From contig JAOUCL010000001.1 in assembly GCA_029859805.1 (NCBI GenBank), positions 1,300 to 65,299 of the forward strand: a stretch of 64,000 bases of DNA, written 5' to 3'. The notes below the pieces were generated by a model. The model was not told the DNA's origin. It searched no databases and saw only the letters and a list, made by a program, of their open reading frames with translations. How positions within the stretch are numbered: position 1 is the first letter of the stretch; each line of letters opens with the position of its first letter. This DNA comes from Rhodospirillales bacterium. Its GTDB lineage: Bacteria; Pseudomonadota; Alphaproteobacteria; Kiloniellales; JAKSDN01. Both the position numbers and the translations under genes were made by a program. Positions 28,674 to 49,641 of this stretch are shown here, piece after piece.

Positions 28674-28687
28674 TGAACAATTGTTCA
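28674..28687. promoter_or_regulatory. Candidate ArsR/SmtB operator: perfect 14-bp palindrome TGAACAATTGTTCA
   Basis: Read directly from an AT-rich patch 6-21 nt upstream of the candidate arsR starts. TGAACA-N2-TGTTCA resembles the inverted repeats described for SmtB/CzrA-type operators. Confidence 0.6.
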
Positions 28688-28755: not shown

Positions 28756-29349
28756 CTAATCCAGGTCTTCGGCGAGAGCGGCGCGGGTCGCCTCGGGCAG
28801 GACTGCCATGTGGCTGTAGTTCGAGTGACCGAAGCCGAGCACGACCTCGGTGTCCGGGGCCTTGAAGCCCGCGGCCTGTTCGGCGGTCATGGGAAAATGG
28901 ATGAACTGTACCGACGAGGCCTTGCCGGCGGCGGTCGTGCGATCGACGTCCTCCTCCGGCAACCCGGTAATCGTTTCGCCCCCGAACCGCAGGAAGGCCG
29001 TCTCTTCCACGCCGCCCAGCTTGGCTAGCACGGCCTGCCGCCGCGCTGGGTCGTCGATCTCGAACATGACCGTGGCAACCAGCTCCCGGCCCTTCGGGAT
29101 CAAGGGATTATAGGCTGCCAGTTCATCGGGAATCTGCTCCTCGCCACCCTTTTCGATAAACAGCATCTCGTGGACCTGATGCCACATTGTCTCGTAGTTC
29201 TCGAAGTAGAAGGTGCAGTCCGGTCCGACCGGCATGCGCCGGTGCTTCTTGACCTCGACGAGCTTGGTCCGGCGTTCCTTGCGTTCACCGGCATAGCGTT
29301 CCATCGGCAGAATGTCCTCGCGGGTGATCTCGTGCTTCATGGCCATCAT
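28756..29349 (-). CDS. DUF3501 family protein (function unknown)
   Basis: Track ORF trimmed to MMAMKHEITREDILPMERY (GGAGGA 7 nt upstream). The sequence (FYFENYETMWHQVHEMLFIEK...AAYNPLIPKGRELVATVMFEI...SVQFIHF) matches my memory of DUF3501. It starts 28 nt after the Fe-S gene. Confidence 0.65.
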   Translation of the reverse strand: MMAMKHEITREDILPMERYAGERKERRTKLVEVKKHRRMPVGPDCTFYFENYETMWHQVHEMLFIEKGGEEQIPDELAAYNPLIPKGRELVATVMFEIDDPARRQAVLAKLGGVEETAFLRFGGETITGLPEEDVDRTTAAGKASSVQFIHFPMTAEQAAGFKAPDTEVVLGFGHSNYSHMAVLPEATRAALAEDLD

Positions 29350-29377
29350 TCCGTCATCCTCCAACTTTCGGGATCCG

Positions 29378-30724
29378 TCAGAGCGCGAGTCCATAGGCCT
29401 GGGCGAGAAGTTCGATCGGATGTCGCGCGCGGTCGATCTCCGGCTTGCCCTGGACCTCGAGGCGATCGATGCCCTGCAGGACGTGCTCGCCAGCCAACGG
29501 GCACTCCGAAGCGAGAAAGGTCTTGCCTGCCTCGGCCGCCTGGCGCGCCACCGGGCGGCCGACCTTGAGCGCCACCTCGAAGTTCTCCTTCAACACGCCC
29601 CAGGATCCGCCATGACCCGAACAGCGTTCGATGACCGCGACATCGGCCTCAGGGGCGAGACGCAGCATTTCGGCCGCTTTCTGGCCCATGTTCTGGGCCC
29701 GCGCATGACAGGCGATGTGTAGCGCAACCCCGCCCGGCAAGGGCCCGAGGCCCTCGGCCAGGCCCTCCTTCTTGGCGATGGCGACGACGTACTCGCTGAT
29801 GTCGAAGGTCGCCTGCGACAGCCGTTTGATGTCTTCGTCCTTGGGCAGGATCAACGGCCACTCGAACTTGAGCATGAGGGCGCAAGACGGCACCAGGGCG
29901 ATGATGTCGTAACCTTTTTCGATCCAGGGCTTCATCTCGGCCGCGATCCGCCTGGCATTCTCGGCCACCTTGGCGAGGTCGCCCTGCTCGAGTTGCGGCA
30001 TGCCGCAGCACGACGGGTAGACGACTTCGGTGTCGACCCCGTTGCGCGCCAGCACGGCGCGCGCGGCCATGCCTATGGCCGGGTTGTTGTAGTTGACGAA
30101 ACAGGTCGCGTAGAGCACGGCCTTGCGTCCGTGGGCCGGAGCCGCCGCGTTGACCTCGACGGCCTCGGTTCTGTCCCGCAGGGTGAAGGTCTTGCCGTGG
30201 AATTCCGGCAGGGCGGCGTCACGATGAATGTCGGCGGCCTTCTCCAGGACCGGCCGGGTGACCCGGTTCGAGGTTCCGCTGGCCCAGTTCACGACGCCGG
30301 GCGCCAGCCGAGCCAGCCGGCCGTTGCGGTCGGTCTTGGTGAATTGCCGGTGCACGGCGCTGGTCTCGCCCCGGGCGTGCTCGGCGGCACGATAGCGCAG
30401 CATCAAGTGCGGAAAGTCGAGATCGAACTCGTGCGGCGGCACATAGGGGCACTTGGTCATGAAACACAGGTCGCAGAGCGTGCAGGCATCCACGACGGGC
30501 TTGAAGTCCGAAGAGGCGACGGAATCGAGCTCGCCGGTCTCCGACTCGTCGATCAGGTCGAACAACCGCGGAAAGGAGTCGCACAGGTTGAAGCAACGGC
30601 GGCACCCGTGGCAGATATCGGAAACCCGGCGCAGTTCCTCGTCGATCTTCTCGGGATCTATGAAATCGGGATCGGTCCAGGCGATCGGATGCCGCGTCGG
30701 CGCGTCCAGGCTGCCTTCGCGCAT
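29378..30724 (-). CDS. HdrD/GlpC-like iron-sulfur protein (2x ferredoxin-type Cys motif + 2x CCG domain)
   Basis: 448 aa. It has CHGCRRCFNLCDSFP and CTLCDLCFMTKCPYVPP motifs. CCG-type regions follow (ATCFVNYNNP...PSCCGMPQ; VPSCALMLK...IACHARAQ...RCSGHGGSWG). Confidence 0.8.
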   Translation of the reverse strand: MREGSLDAPTRHPIAWTDPDFIDPEKIDEELRRVSDICHGCRRCFNLCDSFPRLFDLIDESETGELDSVASSDFKPVVDACTLCDLCFMTKCPYVPPHEFDLDFPHLMLRYRAAEHARGETSAVHRQFTKTDRNGRLARLAPGVVNWASGTSNRVTRPVLEKAADIHRDAALPEFHGKTFTLRDRTEAVEVNAAAPAHGRKAVLYATCFVNYNNPAIGMAARAVLARNGVDTEVVYPSCCGMPQLEQGDLAKVAENARRIAAEMKPWIEKGYDIIALVPSCALMLKFEWPLILPKDEDIKRLSQATFDISEYVVAIAKKEGLAEGLGPLPGGVALHIACHARAQNMGQKAAEMLRLAPEADVAVIERCSGHGGSWGVLKENFEVALKVGRPVARQAAEAGKTFLASECPLAGEHVLQGIDRLEVQGKPEIDRARHPIELLAQAYGLAL

Positions 30725-30782
30725 GGCTTTTTCCTCTGGCCTTTGAGAATGCGATCGAAAAATAGGGCGTGCGGCCAGGGCG

Positions 30783-30813
30783 AAGCGTCGCCGCGCCCTG
30801 GCCTGCCCCGCGT
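30783..30813 (-). terminator. Hairpin between rubrerythrin and the Fe-S gene (possible partial terminator)
   Basis: GGCCAGGGCG - 11 nt loop - CGCCCTGGCC, a perfect 10-bp stem. On the minus strand a TATTTTT run follows after a 9-nt spacer. Confidence 0.35.
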
Positions 30814-30852
30814 ACTCGGATCGAGCGAACCTCTGGGTTCGGCCTGACCCGG

Positions 30853-31275
30853 TCAGTCGTTCATGGTCTCCAGGGCCTTCTGGAAGCGGCCGGCGTGGCT
30901 CTTCTCGGCCTTGGCCAAGGTCTCGAACCAGTCGGCGATCTCGTCGAAGCCCTCCTCGCGGGCGCTGCGCGCCATGCCAGGGTACATATCGGTGTACTCG
31001 TGCGTCTCACCGGCAATCGACGCCTTCAAGTTGGCGTCGGTCGCGCCGATCGGCTCACCGGTCGCCGGATCGCCGACCTCTTCGAGGTACTGGAGGTGGC
31101 CATGGGCGTGACCGGTTTCGCCCTCGGCGGTGGAGCGGAACACGGCGGCGATGTCGTTGTAACCCTCGACGTCCGCCTTCTGGGCGAAATACAGGTAGCG
31201 CCGGTTGGCTTGGCTCTCGCCGGAAAATGCGTCCTTCAAGTTCTGCTCGGTCTTGCTCCCCTTTAACGCGGGCAT
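30853..31275 (-). CDS. Rubrerythrin-family diiron protein without a rubredoxin domain
   Basis: 140 aa. It has a four-helix diiron pattern with two ExxH motifs ([11 protein letters not shown]; [11 protein letters not shown]) plus ESQANRRY and [10 protein letters not shown]. There is no C-terminal CxxC pair. Confidence 0.88.
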
Positions 31276-31396
31276 CGCTCTATCTCCCTAGTGTCTTTGA
31301 GGCTGGTTTGCGAAAAATGGCAGCGGTCCTGCCGCGGGACGGAGGTTCCGTCCCCATGCGACGATAGATAGCCCAAGCCACGGCCGTTGTCAATAG

Positions 31397-31414
31397 CTTA
31401 GAGTAATTCTAGAA
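31397..31414. promoter_or_regulatory. ICE-like (iron control element) candidate Irr-binding site upstream of rubrerythrin
   Basis: CTTAGAG-TAA-TTCTAGAA compared with the ICE consensus TTTAGAA-N3-TTCTAAA gives 11 of 14 matches. It lies about 125 nt upstream of the rubrerythrin ATG and 28 nt downstream of the irr stop. Confidence 0.45.
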
Positions 31415-31441
31415 AAGGTTTTATCAGATTGAATCGACGAG

Positions 31442-31864
31442 TTAAACTAGGTCCGATTTTACACGGATGACCACGTCGACGCGGGTCACGCTGGTGCCCG
31501 CGGGCGGCGCGGGCAGATCGCCGACCTGGAGGTGCTCGCCTGGGATGTCTTCGAGCCCGCACGTGTCTTCGCGATAGAAGTGGTGGTGCTCTTTGACATT
31601 GGTGTCGAAGTAGGAACGGCCCGGCTCGACGACGACCTCGCGCAGCAGGCCGGCGGCTGTGAACTGGTGCAGCGCGTTGTAGACGGTGGCCAGCGAAATG
31701 CGCGCGTTGGCGGCGCTCGCCTCGCCGTGCAGGTGTTCGGCAGTAACGTGCCGGTTTCCCTTTTCAAACAACAGCTTGGCCAGCGCCAGACGCTGGCGCG
31801 TCGGGCGCAGACCAGCGCTCTTCAGACGTTCGATGATCGAGCTATAGGGACGGTTGCTTGCCAT
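31442..31864 (-). CDS. irr: Fur-family iron response regulator Irr
   Basis: Track ORF trimmed to MASNRPYSS (140 aa). A Fur-type wHTH is present (LRPTRQRLALAKLLF...ISLATVYNALHQF), along with an HHH motif (KEHHHFY). It is divergent from fabA-fabB-fabI, as in Rhizobiales irr loci. No N-terminal CP heme regulatory motif. Confidence 0.8.
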   Translation of the reverse strand: MASNRPYSSIIERLKSAGLRPTRQRLALAKLLFEKGNRHVTAEHLHGEASAANARISLATVYNALHQFTAAGLLREVVVEPGRSYFDTNVKEHHHFYREDTCGLEDIPGEHLQVGDLPAPPAGTSVTRVDVVIRVKSDLV

Positions 31865-32111
31865 GGTGCTAATATAGTCAATTACGGTGCGGATAGAAGG
31901 GTTAAAACAGCTTCTTGCGGATTTTCTTGGAACTTGTTTAAAGCACAAAGAGGGAGATCAGCCTGCCATATGCGTTTCGTGTTTCTTCCTCGACTTCGCC
32001 GTTGCTTGCACAGCCAGCACCTGATGCTATAGTCCGGTCAGGGACGGTGCCGGATGGATGTCCTGCGCTGCGGTATGCTGTGACTCCACCTGGGCGGTGA
32101 AGCGGGGATTC

Positions 32112-32630
32112 GTGACAATACGAAAAGGCAGCTATAGCTACGAGGACCTGTTGCAGTGCGCCCATGGCGAGCTCTTTGGTCCGGGCAATGCCCAGTTGCC
32201 GCTGCCCCCCATGCTAATGGTCGATCGCATCACCAGGATCAGCGCCGAGGGTGGCGAGCGCGGCAAGGGTGAAGTCGTTGCCGAACTCGATATCAAGCCC
32301 GATCTCTGGTTCTTCGAGGGCCACTTCGAGAACGATCCGGTGATGCCGGGTTGTCTGGGCCTTGACGCCCTGTGGCAACTGCTCGGCTTCTTCCTGGGTT
32401 GGCTTGGGGCGCCCGGGCGGGGTCGGGCCTTGGGCGTCGGCGAGGTCAAGCTGATGGGACAGATTTTTCCGACGGCCAAGAAGGCGATTTACAAAGTGAA
32501 CCTGAAACGCGTGATCATGCGCAAACTCGTGCTCGGCATCGCCGATGGCATGATAGAGGTGGACGGGGAGACCGTCTACGAGGCGAAGGACCTGAAGGTC
32601 GGCCTGTTCACCCCGCCGGAAGCGGCTTAG
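32112..32630 (+). CDS. fabA: 3-hydroxydecanoyl-ACP dehydratase / trans-2-decenoyl-ACP isomerase
   Basis: GTG start gives [40 protein letters not shown] (172 aa). The active-site region is [24 protein letters not shown]. Confidence 0.92.
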
Positions 32631-32640
32631 GGAATCGCCC

Positions 32641-33861
32641 ATGCGACGCGTCGTCGTCACCGGTATCGGCATCGTGTCGAGCATCGGCAACAACAAGCAC
32701 GAAGTGCTGGACTCGCTGAAGGCCGGCCGATCAGGAATCGAGCGTTCGGAGGAGTACGCCGAACTTGGCTTCCGCAGCCATGTCCACGGGTCGATAAAAC
32801 TCGACATCGAGTCTGTCTTGGACCGCAAATTGCGTCGCTTCATGGGTGACGGCGCGGCTTTCAACTACATCGCCATGCAAGAGGCGATCGGCGACGCGGG
32901 CCTGGAGAGCGATGAGGTCTCGAACGAGCGGACCGGCCTCATCATGGGATCGGGCGGTAACTCGACCAAGGATTTGTCCCGCGCTTTCGCGACGGCGAAG
33001 GAAAGGGGGCCGCGCAGGGTCGGCCCCTTCATGGTGCCGCGCGTCATGTCGAACACCAACTCGGCGACGCTCGCGGTCCCCTTCAGGATCAAGGGGGTCA
33101 ACTATTCGATCACCTCGGCCTGCGCCACCAGCACCCACTGTATCGGCAACGGCATGGAGCTGATCCAGCTGGGCAAGCAGGACATCGTTTTTGCCGGCGG
33201 TGGCGAGGAGCTATATTGGACCGCTTCGGTCCTTTTCGACGCGATGCCGGCGCTGTCTTCAAGCTACAACGATTCGCCGACCCGGGCCTCGCGCGCCTTC
33301 GACGTCGGGCGCGACGGCTTCGTCATCTCGGGTGGCGGCGGCGTGGTCGTGCTCGAAGAGCTGGACCGCGCACTGGCGCGCGGTGCCAGGATTTATGCCG
33401 AGCTGGTCGGCTACGGCGCCACGTCCGACGGCTACGATATGGTCCAGCCGTCGGGTGACGGGGCCGTACGCTGCATGAAGATGGCTATCCAGTCGCTCGG
33501 CAAAACGCCGGTGGACTACATCAACACCCATGGCACCTCGACCCCGATCGGCGACACCGTCGAACTCAAGGCGATCAAGAAGGTCTTCGGGGCGGACCTG
33601 CCAAAGATCAATTCGACCAAATCCCTGACCGGCCATGCCCTGGGTGCCGCGGGCGTCAACGAGGCGATCTATTCTCTGCTCATGATGGAGCACAAGTTCA
33701 TCGCCGCCTCCGCCAACATCGACGAGTTGGATCCGGAGGGCGAAGGCATGCCGATCGTGCGTGAGCGCGAAGACGATGTCGAACTGAACTGTGTCGTCTC
33801 CAACAGCTTCGGCTTCGGCGGCACCAATGCTTCGCTCGCCCTAAAGTGCTACGAACCGTGA
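32641..33861 (+). CDS. fabB: 3-oxoacyl-ACP synthase I
   Basis: 406 aa KAS I with the active Cys in SITSACATS, the His region [11 protein letters not shown] and GHALGAAG...NSFGFGGTN. Confidence 0.93.
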
Positions 33862-33979
33862 ACCAAGGGGACTCAATGAGGCACAAACCGGCCGCGGGGT
33901 CACCGCTGCGTCTGGCTGTCGACCCGGCCCGGCGCGTGCAACAGGCCCTGGCGCAAGTGATCAAGGGCGGAACTCTGAC

Positions 33980-34786
33980 GTGAGCGCCAATTCGGCATTG
34001 ATGGCGGGCAAACGCGGCCTCATCATGGGGGTTGCGAACGACCACTCGATCGCCTGGGGCATCGCGACCGCGCTCCGTGCCGAGGGGGCCGAACTGGCGT
34101 TCACTTATCAGGGCGAAGCATTCGGAAAACGTGTCCGGCCCCTGGCCGGCTCGCTCGGATCGAATCTGGTCCTGCCCTGCGACGTCGAAGACGACGGCAC
34201 GATCGGCCGGGTCTTCGAGGAGATCGACAAGGCCTGGGGCAGGTTGGACTTTTTGGTACATGCCATCGCTTACTCGGACAAGGAGGAGCTGAAGGGCCGC
34301 TACCTGAACACGACCCGCGGCAACTTCGCCCGCACGCTCGCGATCTCCTGCTATTCGTTCACGGCGCTGGCCCGCCGCGCCCAGCCGCTGATGGTCGAGG
34401 GCGGCAGCCTGGTCACCTTGTCGTATCTTGGCGCCCAGCGGGTGACGCCGAACTACAATGTCATGGGCGTGGCCAAGGCGGCGCTTGAGGCCAGCGTGCG
34501 CTACCTCGCGGCCGACCTGGGCGCCCAGGGCGTCAGGGTCAATGCAATCTCGGCAGGCCCCATGCGCACGCTCGCCGGTTCGGCGATCGCCGACGCCCGC
34601 TTCGTGTATCGCTGGAACCAGGACCACGCGCCGCTGAGGCGCAACGTGCTGCTGACCGAGGTCGGCGCGGCCGGGCTCTATCTGTTGTCGGACCTGTCGC
34701 TCGGCGTAACCGGCGAGGTGCATCACGTCGATGCCGGCTACAACGTGATCGGCATCCCGTCACCGGCCCGCCTGGCGGACGGCTGA
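33980..34786 (+). CDS. fabI: Enoyl-ACP reductase (NADH), FabI
   Basis: 268 aa with GKRGLIMGVANDHSIAWGIA, YLGAQRVTPNYNVMGVAKAALE (Y-x6-K) and ISAGPMRTLA. GTG start. The 3' end overlaps the convergent GDPD gene by 27 nt. Confidence 0.92.
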   Translation: MSANSALMAGKRGLIMGVANDHSIAWGIATALRAEGAELAFTYQGEAFGKRVRPLAGSLGSNLVLPCDVEDDGTIGRVFEEIDKAWGRLDFLVHAIAYSDKEELKGRYLNTTRGNFARTLAISCYSFTALARRAQPLMVEGGSLVTLSYLGAQRVTPNYNVMGVAKAALEASVRYLAADLGAQGVRVNAISAGPMRTLAGSAIADARFVYRWNQDHAPLRRNVLLTEVGAAGLYLLSDLSLGVTGEVHHVDAGYNVIGIPSPARLADG

Positions 34787-48045: not shown

Positions 48046-49641
48046 TCAGGAATTGTAAAATAACCGCAACACAAAGGCCGGTACCGCGAAAATCGCAATG
48101 AGAATTAGAACCATCCAATTGCCGACCCGCGAATAAAGCGTCCCAGCGTCGGCCGGACGCGGCAGGGGCGAATCGATCACGCCGACACGGTTGAGCCCAA
48201 GGCGATGGAGCACGCGTCCATAGCTGTCGACAACCGCCGAGATCCCCGTATTGGCGACCCGCACGACGGGCAGACCCTCCTCGACGGCGCGCAGTCGGAC
48301 GCTCGCAAAGTGCTGATAGGGGCCCGAACTGGTGCCGAACCAGGCATCGTTCGTCACGTTGAGAAGCCAGGCCGGCCGTCTGTCGGGCTCGGTCACCTGC
48401 CCGGGAAAGATCACCTCATAGCAGATCAGCGGGCCGGCCGGCGGCAAGCCTGGTAACTCGAGCGTCCGCGGACCCGGTCCGGGACTGAAATCGATGCGGC
48501 CCTGGGTCAGCTTGGCAAACCCGAATAACGATCTGAAAGGTACGTACTCGCCGAAAGGAACCAAGTGGAACTTGTCGTAGGTGCCGCGGATCTCGCCCGA
48601 GGAGTCGAGAGCGTGCAACGAATTCCACACACTCAGCCGGCCGGCGCCCGCCGAACGGCGCACCGCACCCGATAGCAACAGACCGTCCGGCGGCACGATC
48701 CGGGCGAGCACGCGCCTCAGGTCCGGGTCGTTCGCCAGGCTGTAGGTGATCGCTGTTTCCGACCAGACGATGTGGGTGATGTCGTCCGTGGTATTGCGAG
48801 CGCTCATGGTCATTTGGTCGGCTATGTTTTGGCTGCGCAGCTGGGCCTGCCACTTGCTCGACTGATCGATACCGGGCTGTACCAGCCGCAACATGACACC
48901 GGGTACCGCGTCGCTGCCTGGGACCGGTGCCGCGGCCAAACGCAATGCACCTCCGGACCACACCAGCGCCAGCGCCAACAAGCTGACGCAGGTCGGCGCC
49001 CACCGCCTTAACGGGCGCGCGGCCGCGTCGCCCAAGGTCGAGGGCGCCGCCGCGGTCAGCACGGTGAGCAACGAGAGGCCCCAGACGCCGGTTAGCGCTC
49101 CGAGCTGAAGCATGGCGTCGGAGAACACCCAGACACTGCCGATCAGGTTCCACGGGAAACCGGTGAAGAGCCAGGATCGCACCCATTCCGTGGCGAGCCA
49201 AGCCGCCGCCAGAAGCAGCACCCGGCCCAGGCCGCGGCAACGGCTGGCCCAGACCGCCAGGGCGGCGAGCCCCGGAAACAGGCCCATCCCAGCGGCAAGC
49301 GCTCCCACGGCCAGGGGAATCAGTGCGGCGAACTGCTCGGCGTCCACCAGGAAGGCTATCCCGACCCAGTAAAGTCCGGCGAGGAAGTGCCCGGTCCCAA
49401 ACGCCCAGCCGACCAAGAACGCGCCGCGCGGCCGTTTGCTGCCGTCGAGCAACCACAGCAGGCCAACAAACGCAGGCCAAAGCAGGGGCACGAGATGGGC
49501 CGGCGGCAGGGCCGCGCTGGCCACCGCTCCGAGCATCGCCGCCGCGAGATAGCGCCGCCAGCCGGTGAGGCCAGCGAGGACCCCGGCGACCCGGGCGAAG
49601 AAATGTTGGGTGGACCCCGCCTTCGCAAGAGAATCAGTCAT
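48046..49641 (-). CDS. lnt: Apolipoprotein N-acyltransferase
   Basis: 531 aa with a multi-TM N-terminal half. A CN-hydrolase domain follows (VWSETA...KFHLVPFGEYVP...LICYEVIFP...NDAWFG). Confidence 0.92.
   Translation of the reverse strand: MTDSLAKAGSTQHFFARVAGVLAGLTGWRRYLAAAMLGAVASAALPPAHLVPLLWPAFVGLLWLLDGSKRPRGAFLVGWAFGTGHFLAGLYWVGIAFLVDAEQFAALIPLAVGALAAGMGLFPGLAALAVWASRCRGLGRVLLLAAAWLATEWVRSWLFTGFPWNLIGSVWVFSDAMLQLGALTGVWGLSLLTVLTAAAPSTLGDAAARPLRRWAPTCVSLLALALVWSGGALRLAAAPVPGSDAVPGVMLRLVQPGIDQSSKWQAQLRSQNIADQMTMSARNTTDDITHIVWSETAITYSLANDPDLRRVLARIVPPDGLLLSGAVRRSAGAGRLSVWNSLHALDSSGEIRGTYDKFHLVPFGEYVPFRSLFGFAKLTQGRIDFSPGPGPRTLELPGLPPAGPLICYEVIFPGQVTEPDRRPAWLLNVTNDAWFGTSSGPYQHFASVRLRAVEEGLPVVRVANTGISAVVDSYGRVLHRLGLNRVGVIDSPLPRPADAGTLYSRVGNWMVLILIAIFAVPAFVLRLFYNS

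Follow-up and report, generated by a model that had tools for sequence, protein, structure and literature searches.

The window studied here comprises 64,000 nucleotides (64 kb) of contig JAOUCL010000001.1 from a Rhodospirillales bacterium, and all positions follow the numbering of this whole stretch. On its minus strand lies a four-gene cassette, irr / rbr-RFO-DUF3501, in which the gene for a Fur-family iron-response regulator precedes a rubrerythrin gene and two partner genes. The irr open reading frame (31864-31442, 140 aa; NCBIfam IrrA/Irr, Pfam FUR) is separated by 166 nt from rbr (31275-30853), which encodes a 140-aa rubrerythrin (Rbr) of the aerobic, sulerythrin-like type without a rubredoxin domain (Pfam PF02915). 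After a further 128 nt comes the gene for RFO, a 448-aa CCG/Fe-S protein (30724-29378; Pfam CCG and Cys motifs), whose stop codon is followed 28 nt later by the ATG of the DUF3501 gene (29349-28756, 197 aa; PF12007, PDB 3fjv), with a GGAGGA in the gap. Spacers were taken from the list of open reading frames and the raw sequence. A preliminary description of this DNA, made from the sequence alone, had given the coordinates and features of these genes, all of which were confirmed by open reading frames, sequence and hidden Markov model (HMM) scans; gene callers also gave 197 aa for the DUF3501 protein on identical metagenome contigs. Proteins identical to RFO occurred on metagenome contigs only, with the gene order unchanged, and among the matches listed the closest genomes by RFO were metagenome-assembled genomes (MAGs) and isolates of Kiloniellaceae and Pelagibius, at 72-76% identity. 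This places the source among uncultured alphaproteobacteria of the Kiloniellales/Rhodospirillales grade.

To place the cassette in a comparative frame, the RFO protein was scanned against one genome per species, which gave at least 600 matching stretches and at least 592 confirmed relatives. The best 80 of these at least 592 relatives were kept as loci (L007-L086); neighbouring genes were located in them by tblastn, and 74 of the loci reach far enough for irr. An irr homologue lay directly upstream of rbr-RFO-DUF3501, on the same strand, in every one of these 74 loci, and a DUF3501 gene was found in all 80 related loci extending that far, so that the co-occurrence of the three genes in related genomes was upheld. 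RFO identity across the syntenic loci was 64-76%. Irr-linked trios were found in Kiloniellales, Rhodospirillales sensu lato, SAR116, Sneathiella, Azospirillum, Stella and others, with Pelagibius litoralis DSM 21314 (L014), Pelagibius sp. 7325 (L019), Sneathiella chungangensis KCTC 32476 (L072) and Azospirillum agricola (L074) among the cultured carriers, and the same order occurred on two extra metagenome contigs (L087 and L088). Some cassette contigs whose RFO is 66-74% identical carry off-taxon labels (L037, Mycobacteriaceae; L039, Flavobacteriaceae; L044, Flavobacteriales; L081, Gemmatimonas), and the label of L087, Halothiobacillaceae, is that of its RFO protein; all of these are probably mis-binned MAG contigs.

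The regulator is an Irr orthologue by profile as well as by motif. With NCBIfam models it reached 211 bits for IrrA (cut-off 150) and 187 bits for Irr (cut-off 170), PerR models coming next at 61-66 bits, and it matched Pfam FUR at 5.7e-20. Its residues 93-95 form an HHH version of the HXH haem motif, and H93, H94 and H95 are each kept in 97-100% of the 74 relatives. The protein contains no Cys at all and therefore lacks the haem-regulatory CP motif of Bradyrhizobium japonicum Irr. Apo-Irr binds a DNA motif known as the iron control element (ICE), and haem at the HXH motif abolishes this binding; the position of the ICE decides whether Irr represses or activates (PMC7762939).

A predicted Irr operator of this kind, TCTAGAATTACTCTAAG (31413-31397, minus strand), begins 28 nt past the irr stop and was recognized both by its match to the ICE consensus and by a weight matrix built from relatives. 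It differs at 3 positions from the published consensus, TTTRGAAYNRTTCYAAA (PMC1698941), and is the sole site with 3 or fewer mismatches in the window, where 0.15 would be expected by chance. On a matrix trained on the 74 relatives with the window excluded, for which training sites score at least 12.2 bits, the box reached 21.9-23.4 bits; the runner-up in the window scored 13.3 bits, and no further site in the 64 kb exceeded that value. The box also retains T3, A6, T12 and A15, all of which are invariant in 74/74 relatives. The ICE-like element that the preliminary description had placed 28 nt past the irr stop is borne out as a unique feature of the window. Another ICE-like site, at 48104, was dismissed as it lies inside an open reading frame.

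The box ends 3 nt before the -35 hexamer of a predicted sigma-70 promoter of rbr (31393-31365, minus strand), which consists of TTGACA at 31393-31388, a 17-nt spacer and TATCTA at 31370-31365. A strict consensus scan missed this promoter because its -10 ends in A, and it was read from the sequence instead. If TTGACA is numbered -35 to -30, the box occupies about -55 to -39, and the transcription start site (TSS) of rbr would lie near 31358.

This arrangement recurs across the relatives. The best ICE match had 0-3 mismatches in 68/75 irr-rbr spacers, compared with 0.65/75 in shuffled spacers, and in 654 kb of real flanking DNA 9 sites had 2 mismatches, 20 had 3 and none had fewer than 2. A homologous box was equivalently positioned in 68-73 of 75 loci and ended 3-6 nt before a TTGAC-type -35 in 72 of 75, followed by a cATAta-like -10 at 16-19 nt past the -35 and by a leader of about 60-120 nt up to the rbr start. 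The resulting logo reads tTTAGAAt.aTTCTAAa-cTA-TTGACa-N17-cATAta, in which the conserved box takes the palindromic form TTTAGAA-N3-TTCTAAA. The trio of Burkholderia and Paraburkholderia (L089 and L090), which served as a negative control, had no Fur-family neighbour and no ICE, the best match having 6-7 mismatches. The box is thus no chance match, and these comparisons provide strong phylogenetic-footprint evidence that the palindrome serves as operator for the neighbouring irr product. The gene identities, the conserved synteny and the spacing of box and promoter are the directly established part of this analysis. Upstream of the Burkholderia and Paraburkholderia trio (L089:1830-2104 and L090:1618-1982) stands a different conserved stretch, GGCTATCGGCGAnATTGAAA ... 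CCTAGATTGA, which we would guess to be the operator of another regulator, possibly of the OxyR type.

Turning to the proteins of the trio, Rbr has a single Pfam domain, Rubrerythrin (5.9e-30), and the Pfam scan found no rubredoxin domain in it. It shares about 80% of its residues with the B. pseudomallei rubrerythrin structures 4di0, 8fuh and 9onm (E about 3e-70 for 9onm and 4di0) and matches sulerythrin (1j30) at E 3e-52. All seven di-iron ligands, read from the sequence, are present (E20, E53, H56, E90, E93, E124 and H127); E53 and E124 are the residues mutated in a metal-free variant of the B. pseudomallei protein, BpRbr (10.1101/2025.06.01.657255). A single-domain protein of the sulerythrin/BpRbr group with an intact di-iron site, it is of the aerobic type. 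Sulerythrin and ferriperoxin, which belong to this group, are described as functioning without a rubredoxin domain and as having peroxidase activity, and in the type examples it was the Rbr component only that was assayed (PMC5114695; 10.1101/2025.06.01.657255).

The preliminary description had cited as precedent an Irr-repressed rubrerythrin-like gene of Bradyrhizobium, blr7895. That precedent does not hold, as blr7895 encodes MbfA, in which an N-terminal erythrin domain is joined to a C-terminal VIT1-type membrane domain for iron export (PMC1698941; PMC3413700; PMC7762939), and belongs to another gene family. Membership of Rbr in the MbfA family was rejected: the protein scored 16.7 bits against the MbfA cut-off of 450, is 140 aa long and has no hydrophobic segment (maximum KD19 0.27).

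RFO matched Pfam CCG (4e-10) in two stretches and carries two ferredoxin-type motifs, C38xxC41xxC44xxxC48 and C81xxC84xxC87xxxxC92, that are 100% conserved in the 80 relatives. Of the families proposed from the sequence, rubrerythrin, CCG and DUF3501 were all matched by HMM; for the Fe-S protein, the Pfam 4Fe-4S dicluster models gave hits below threshold only (E about 0.015), and the assignment of ferredoxin-type clusters therefore rests on the Cys motifs, not on an HMM. The second of the two CCG regions likewise calls for a small correction, as it actually reads C368-S-G-H371. The first CCG-like domain holds C208, C239, C240 and C281, with an invariant M284 in the place of the last Cys of the CXXC, and the second holds C339-H340, C368-S-G-H371, C408 and H414. 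The Cys and His residues are 100% conserved. Neither domain shows the five-Cys signature of HdrB/HdrD (CXnCCGXmCXXC), the fold similarity being kept, and the residues of the second suggest a mixed Cys/His metal site unlike that of HdrB. No sequence homologue of RFO was found in the PDB. Its AlphaFold2 model (pLDDT 82) has as Foldseek neighbours LutA (9a6l), HdrB (8rwn and 5odc) and mycobacterial EtfD (9ojn), at E 1e-9 to 5e-7.

RFO thus resembles the HdrD/GlpC/EtfD/LutA family in its N-terminal 2x[4Fe-4S] ferredoxin-like domain and two CCG-type domains, and it differs from that family in its sub-GlpC score, its degenerate CCG signatures, the absence of any transmembrane segment or membrane domain, and the lack of glpA or glpB nearby. 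Its identity as GlpC was rejected on scores (PRK11168, 181 vs 278; TIGR03379, 105 vs 280) and on the missing glpA/glpB neighbours, and its identity as a true HdrD on the degenerate motifs, sub-cut-off scores and lack of partner genes. What it does match is the RFO of the described rubrerythrin module, a co-localized COG0247-type Fe-S oxidoreductase with a CCG domain. RFO homologues in databases (P0122-P0240) are in many entries named 'glycerol-3-phosphate dehydrogenase subunit C' (JGI), 'ferredoxin' or 'heterodisulfide reductase-related'. Because RFO fails the GlpC cut-offs and has no glpA/glpB beside it, the GlpC name is a propagated misannotation.

The third product matched PF12007 over its full length (8.6e-59) and, at E 4e-29, PDB 3fjv, a B. 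pseudomallei structure deposited as a 'novel protein of unknown function'. In its AlphaFold2 model (pLDDT 89) it is an alpha/beta protein with 3fjv as sole structural neighbour in the PDB, and the modelled fold is an orphan that gives no hint of function. Like RFO, it is co-localized with Rbr as in the described module, and the gap between the RFO and DUF3501 genes has a median of 19 nt in related loci. RFO and DUF3501 co-occur almost exclusively with aerobic-type Rbr; all three are present in 185 genomes, and the two are fused in Nitrosomonas (PMC5114695). This co-occurrence, the Nitrosomonas fusion and the short gap point to a physical partnership of RFO and DUF3501 with Rbr.

The locus is not an undescribed system but a copy of an already named trio placed behind irr and a conserved ICE. 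The cluster of aerobic-type RBR, RFO and DUF3501 was defined and named by Cardenas, Quatrini and Holmes in 2016 (PMC5114695). Gray et al. in 2020 spoke of a three-component system, which in some mitochondria derives from alphaproteobacteria (PMC7050145), and a 2025 preprint on BpRbr restates the idea of operon partners standing in for the rubredoxin domain (10.1101/2025.06.01.657255). Structures are available for Rbr (4di0 and 9onm), sulerythrin (1j30) and a DUF3501 protein (3fjv). Control of 'a rubrerythrin-like protein' by Irr and ICE was predicted in 2006 within minimal Irr regulons of Rhodospirillum, Magnetospirillum and Pelagibacter (Rodionov; PMC1698941); regulation is not discussed in the 2016 paper, in which the stem 'regulat' occurs 0 times (PMC5114695). 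The proposal of an Irr-controlled module of rubrerythrin, Fe-S protein and DUF3501 gained strong comparative support from the adjacent irr (74/74), the fixed position of the box relative to the -35 and the HHH motif, but its ranking as the window's best candidate for an under-described system falls away.

Set against its known counterparts, the cassette combines features of several. The aerobic-type modules of B. pseudomallei (the BpRbr operon) and S. tokodaii (the sulerythrin cluster) have the same three families in the same order; the trio of the window, like that of at least 74 related species of alphaproteobacteria, has in addition irr and an ICE in front of it, whereas the Burkholderia and Paraburkholderia versions have neither. 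Ferriperoxin of Hydrogenobacter thermophilus likewise belongs to the rubredoxin-less Rbr group 4 and has a demonstrated peroxidase function, but the RFO gene of that organism lies apart from rbr and DUF3501 (PMC5114695). Known members of the Irr/ICE regulon include bll6680 (bfr) and blr7895 (mbfA) of B. japonicum, mbfA and ccpA of R. sphaeroides and the minimal regulons of Rodionov 2006. The cassette shares with them an Irr orthologue with an HXH motif, an operator matching TTTRGAAYNRTTCYAAA and a target encoding iron-containing oxidative-stress proteins, and with R. sphaeroides ccpA also the distance from box to TSS. It departs from them in that the target is an aerobic-type rbr operon rather than mbfA, and in that the regulator sits in cis beside its target, as a local regulator would, with one strong ICE in 64 kb. 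A Fur-superfamily gene is also co-located with rubrerythrin in the rbr operon of Nitratidesulfovibrio (Desulfovibrio) vulgaris, which has a Fur/Zur-type regulator (10.1101/2025.06.01.657255). Unlike such PerR/Fur-linked units of anaerobes, the cassette uses the Irr branch, which senses haem rather than metal-catalysed oxidation (PMC7762939), and its Rbr has RFO and DUF3501 in place of a rubredoxin domain.

RNA structure was examined in two untranslated stretches of the operon. The 128-nt rbr-RFO spacer contains a structured element (30809-30757, minus strand) in which a 10-bp GC stem (30803-30773) sits within a longer stem and is followed by TATTTTT; the fold has -57.2 kcal/mol and z -2.4. A stable hairpin was found in this spacer in 72/76 related loci (median z -2.9; median spacer length 124 nt). 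It is probably a partial terminator or an mRNA-stabilizing element that sets the ratio of Rbr to RFO, which points to a higher output of Rbr than of RFO and DUF3501. The 5' leader of rbr (31358-31276, minus strand; about 83 nt) holds two GC hairpins (31354-31336 and 31333-31319), the second of which is followed by a T5 run at 31317-31313; it folds at -26.7 kcal/mol with z -1.7. A 5' hairpin is common in the rbr leaders of relatives, but neither leader sequence nor T-run is conserved. On these grounds, with z -1.7 and no Rfam match for the leader, a conserved riboswitch or attenuator was rejected. The second hairpin with its TTTTT is terminator-like, lies downstream of the rbr promoter and could also end irr transcripts.

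The model that best accounts for the locus, to which we assign a probability of about 0.6, is an Irr-repressed Rbr peroxidase module that is reduced through RFO with DUF3501. Four of its elements we infer: that Irr binds the box, which way the control runs, that electrons pass from RFO to Rbr, and what DUF3501 does. Rbr, a domain-swapped di-iron four-helix bundle, would reduce H2O2 to water. Because it lacks the rubredoxin domain that re-reduces classical rubrerythrins, its electrons would be delivered by the co-encoded soluble RFO, with two [4Fe-4S] ferredoxin-type clusters and two CCG-like metal sites. DUF3501 would act as a tightly coupled partner, an adaptor or a substrate-binding subunit, and candidate ultimate donors are a thiol, a quinol, ferredoxin or NAD(P)H. 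The near-consensus sigma-70 promoter would drive the operon, its -35 abutted by the single Irr operator. When iron or haem is scarce, apo-Irr on the box would hinder RNA polymerase and so spare iron, of which each unit of the module takes up some 10 atoms or more. Available haem, above all under oxidative conditions, would bind at the HHH motif, release or inactivate Irr and turn the operon on, and the hairpin after rbr would keep Rbr in excess over its partners.

As for the direction of control, repression of the operon by Irr at low iron or haem appears probable. The promoter hexamers are near consensus and conserved, so that no activator is needed, which favours repression. ICEs before genes for iron-containing enzymes were read as low-iron repression by Rodionov in 2006 (PMC1698941). 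A parallel is R. sphaeroides ccpA, whose Irr box, some 40 nt before the TSS, has the geometry seen here; Irr binds there in vitro, and expression at low iron is about 2-fold higher in an irr mutant (PMC3413700).

Several points weigh against this repressed peroxidase model. For this organism we infer all of Irr binding, the response to iron and peroxide, and the operon structure. RFO has degenerate CCG-like motifs (4 and 3 Cys instead of 5 each, plus conserved His), so that neither cofactors nor chemistry can be taken over from HdrB with its non-cubane clusters; the DUF3501 fold, in turn, has no informative neighbour. Sato, in 2012, is said to have reported a ferredoxin (system) as the donor of ferriperoxin, and if so RFO need not be the direct reductant of Rbr. 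Moreover, the box is placed upstream of the -35, clear of the core promoter, and some ICE positions allow Irr to activate (PMC7762939). In Ca. Pelagibacter ubique, finally, iron limitation raised the rbr transcript 1.57-fold (PMC2864753), contrary to what simple repression at low iron would give.

These last points also speak for an activating Irr. Box-bound apo-Irr would then recruit RNA polymerase, and scarcity of haem or iron would induce the non-haem Rbr system, which could stand in for catalase and peroxidases that depend on haem. The sign of Irr control depends on ICE position, direct activation is common (PMC7762939), and the Pelagibacter gene is itself a predicted Irr target. We nevertheless consider activation unlikely: the Pelagibacter effect is small, the module is costly in iron, and a conserved promoter with near-consensus -35 (TTGACA) and -10 is typical of repressor-controlled genes. 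The centre of the box, at about -47, falls between the positions usual for activators, as we judge from established promoter geometry, and the like geometry at R. sphaeroides ccpA gives weak repression (PMC3413700). A different possibility accepts Irr control as in the preferred model and questions the chemistry, the module not being primarily an H2O2 reductase. RFO and DUF3501 would oxidize or reduce some small molecule (thiol or disulfide, quinone or, in the manner of LutA/GlcF, 2-hydroxy acid), and Rbr would be an O2- or peroxide-linked electron sink or an iron- or metal-handling (ferroxidase) protein. The nearest folds of RFO, which are LutA (lactate utilization), HdrB (disulfide reduction) and EtfD (quinone-linked), would agree with this, as would the conserved Cys/His set of its second CCG-like site, unlike that of HdrB. 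So would the promiscuous metal binding of BpRbr, which takes Fe, Mn and Co (10.1101/2025.06.01.657255), and the annotation of Pelagibacter rbr as a putative ferroxidase by the authors of that study (PMC2864753). Yet sulerythrin and ferriperoxin, of the same Rbr group, have measured peroxidase activity, the di-iron site here keeps all seven ligands, and RFO and DUF3501 occur almost only with this Rbr (PMC5114695), which marks them as dedicated partners rather than a separate metabolism; we regard a non-peroxidase role as quite unlikely.

The palindrome might also be read by another regulator, such as Fur, Mur or a PerR-like paralogue, or be a UP-like element, the adjacency of irr being incidental. 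Irr binding of the box is a prediction in the preferred model, the boxes of Fur-family regulators are all AT-rich palindromes, and the spacer is AT-rich within a genome of 66% GC. Against this, the logo equals the published ICE consensus and not a Fur or Mur box, irr is adjacent in 74/74 loci, the box is missing where irr is missing (Burkholderia and Paraburkholderia), and four invariant positions with dyad symmetry are unlike a UP element. Such an explanation is accordingly very improbable.

The genes on either side of the cassette do not appear to belong to the unit. Downstream, a gene for an ArsR/SmtB-family regulator (28668-28324, minus strand) overlaps a cation-diffusion-facilitator (CDF) gene (28376-27693, minus strand), and the pair resembles a classic unit for metal efflux. 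Directly before the ArsR gene stands a perfect 14-bp palindrome, TGAACAATTGTTCA (28674-28687), presumably a CzrA/SmtB-type operator. Since it has this palindrome of its own and follows the trio in 1/80 relatives (L009), the arsR-CDF pair was rejected as part of the rbr unit. On the other side, fabA, fabB and fabI (31865-34786, plus strand) adjoin irr divergently. The irr-fabA adjacency was found in roughly a third of related loci, and the fab genes were rejected as part of the unit, being divergent from irr and adjacent in only a subset of relatives. The divergent fabA-irr spacer contains, 62 nt upstream of the irr ATG, the second-best matrix match of the window, the weak ICE-like site TTTAAACAAGTTCCAAG (31942-31926, minus strand; 13.3 bits). 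ICE sites with 2 mismatches are equivalently placed upstream of irr in six relatives (L008:2640, L013:2599, L022:2658, L026:2654, L031:2664 and L059:2748). By its position, a site of this type may serve Irr autoregulation, or control of fabA, in part of the clade.

The module is widespread, with a relative of RFO in at least 592 species-level genomes, and occurs also in some protist mitochondria (PMC7050145). Our analysis does not overturn current views but extends the predictions of 2006 and 2016. It adds the breadth and rigidity of the irr-ICE-promoter-rbr-RFO-DUF3501 cassette (74/74 loci), the absence of irr and ICE from betaproteobacterial versions and the degenerate CCG sites of RFO, and it flags the recurrent misannotation of RFO as GlpC. 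A broader reading, which we offer only tentatively, is that the Irr regulon may have begun as the irr-ICE-rbr-RFO-DUF3501 cassette and expanded only later into the global iron regulons of Rhizobiales. Irr would then act primarily as a local, PerR-like sensor of haem and oxidants in non-rhizobial alphaproteobacteria, devoted to the rubrerythrin operon next to its gene, and RFO with DUF3501 would form an uncharacterized reductase that feeds a di-iron peroxidase from the thiol or quinol pool through a degenerate CCG Cys/His site and an orphan fold. Across a wide range of marine and soil alphaproteobacteria, the cassette constitutes a minimal setting of one regulator and one promoter, which allows the conditions that induce Rbr to be defined and the haem and oxidant sensing of Irr to be studied without the complexity of the rhizobial global regulon.

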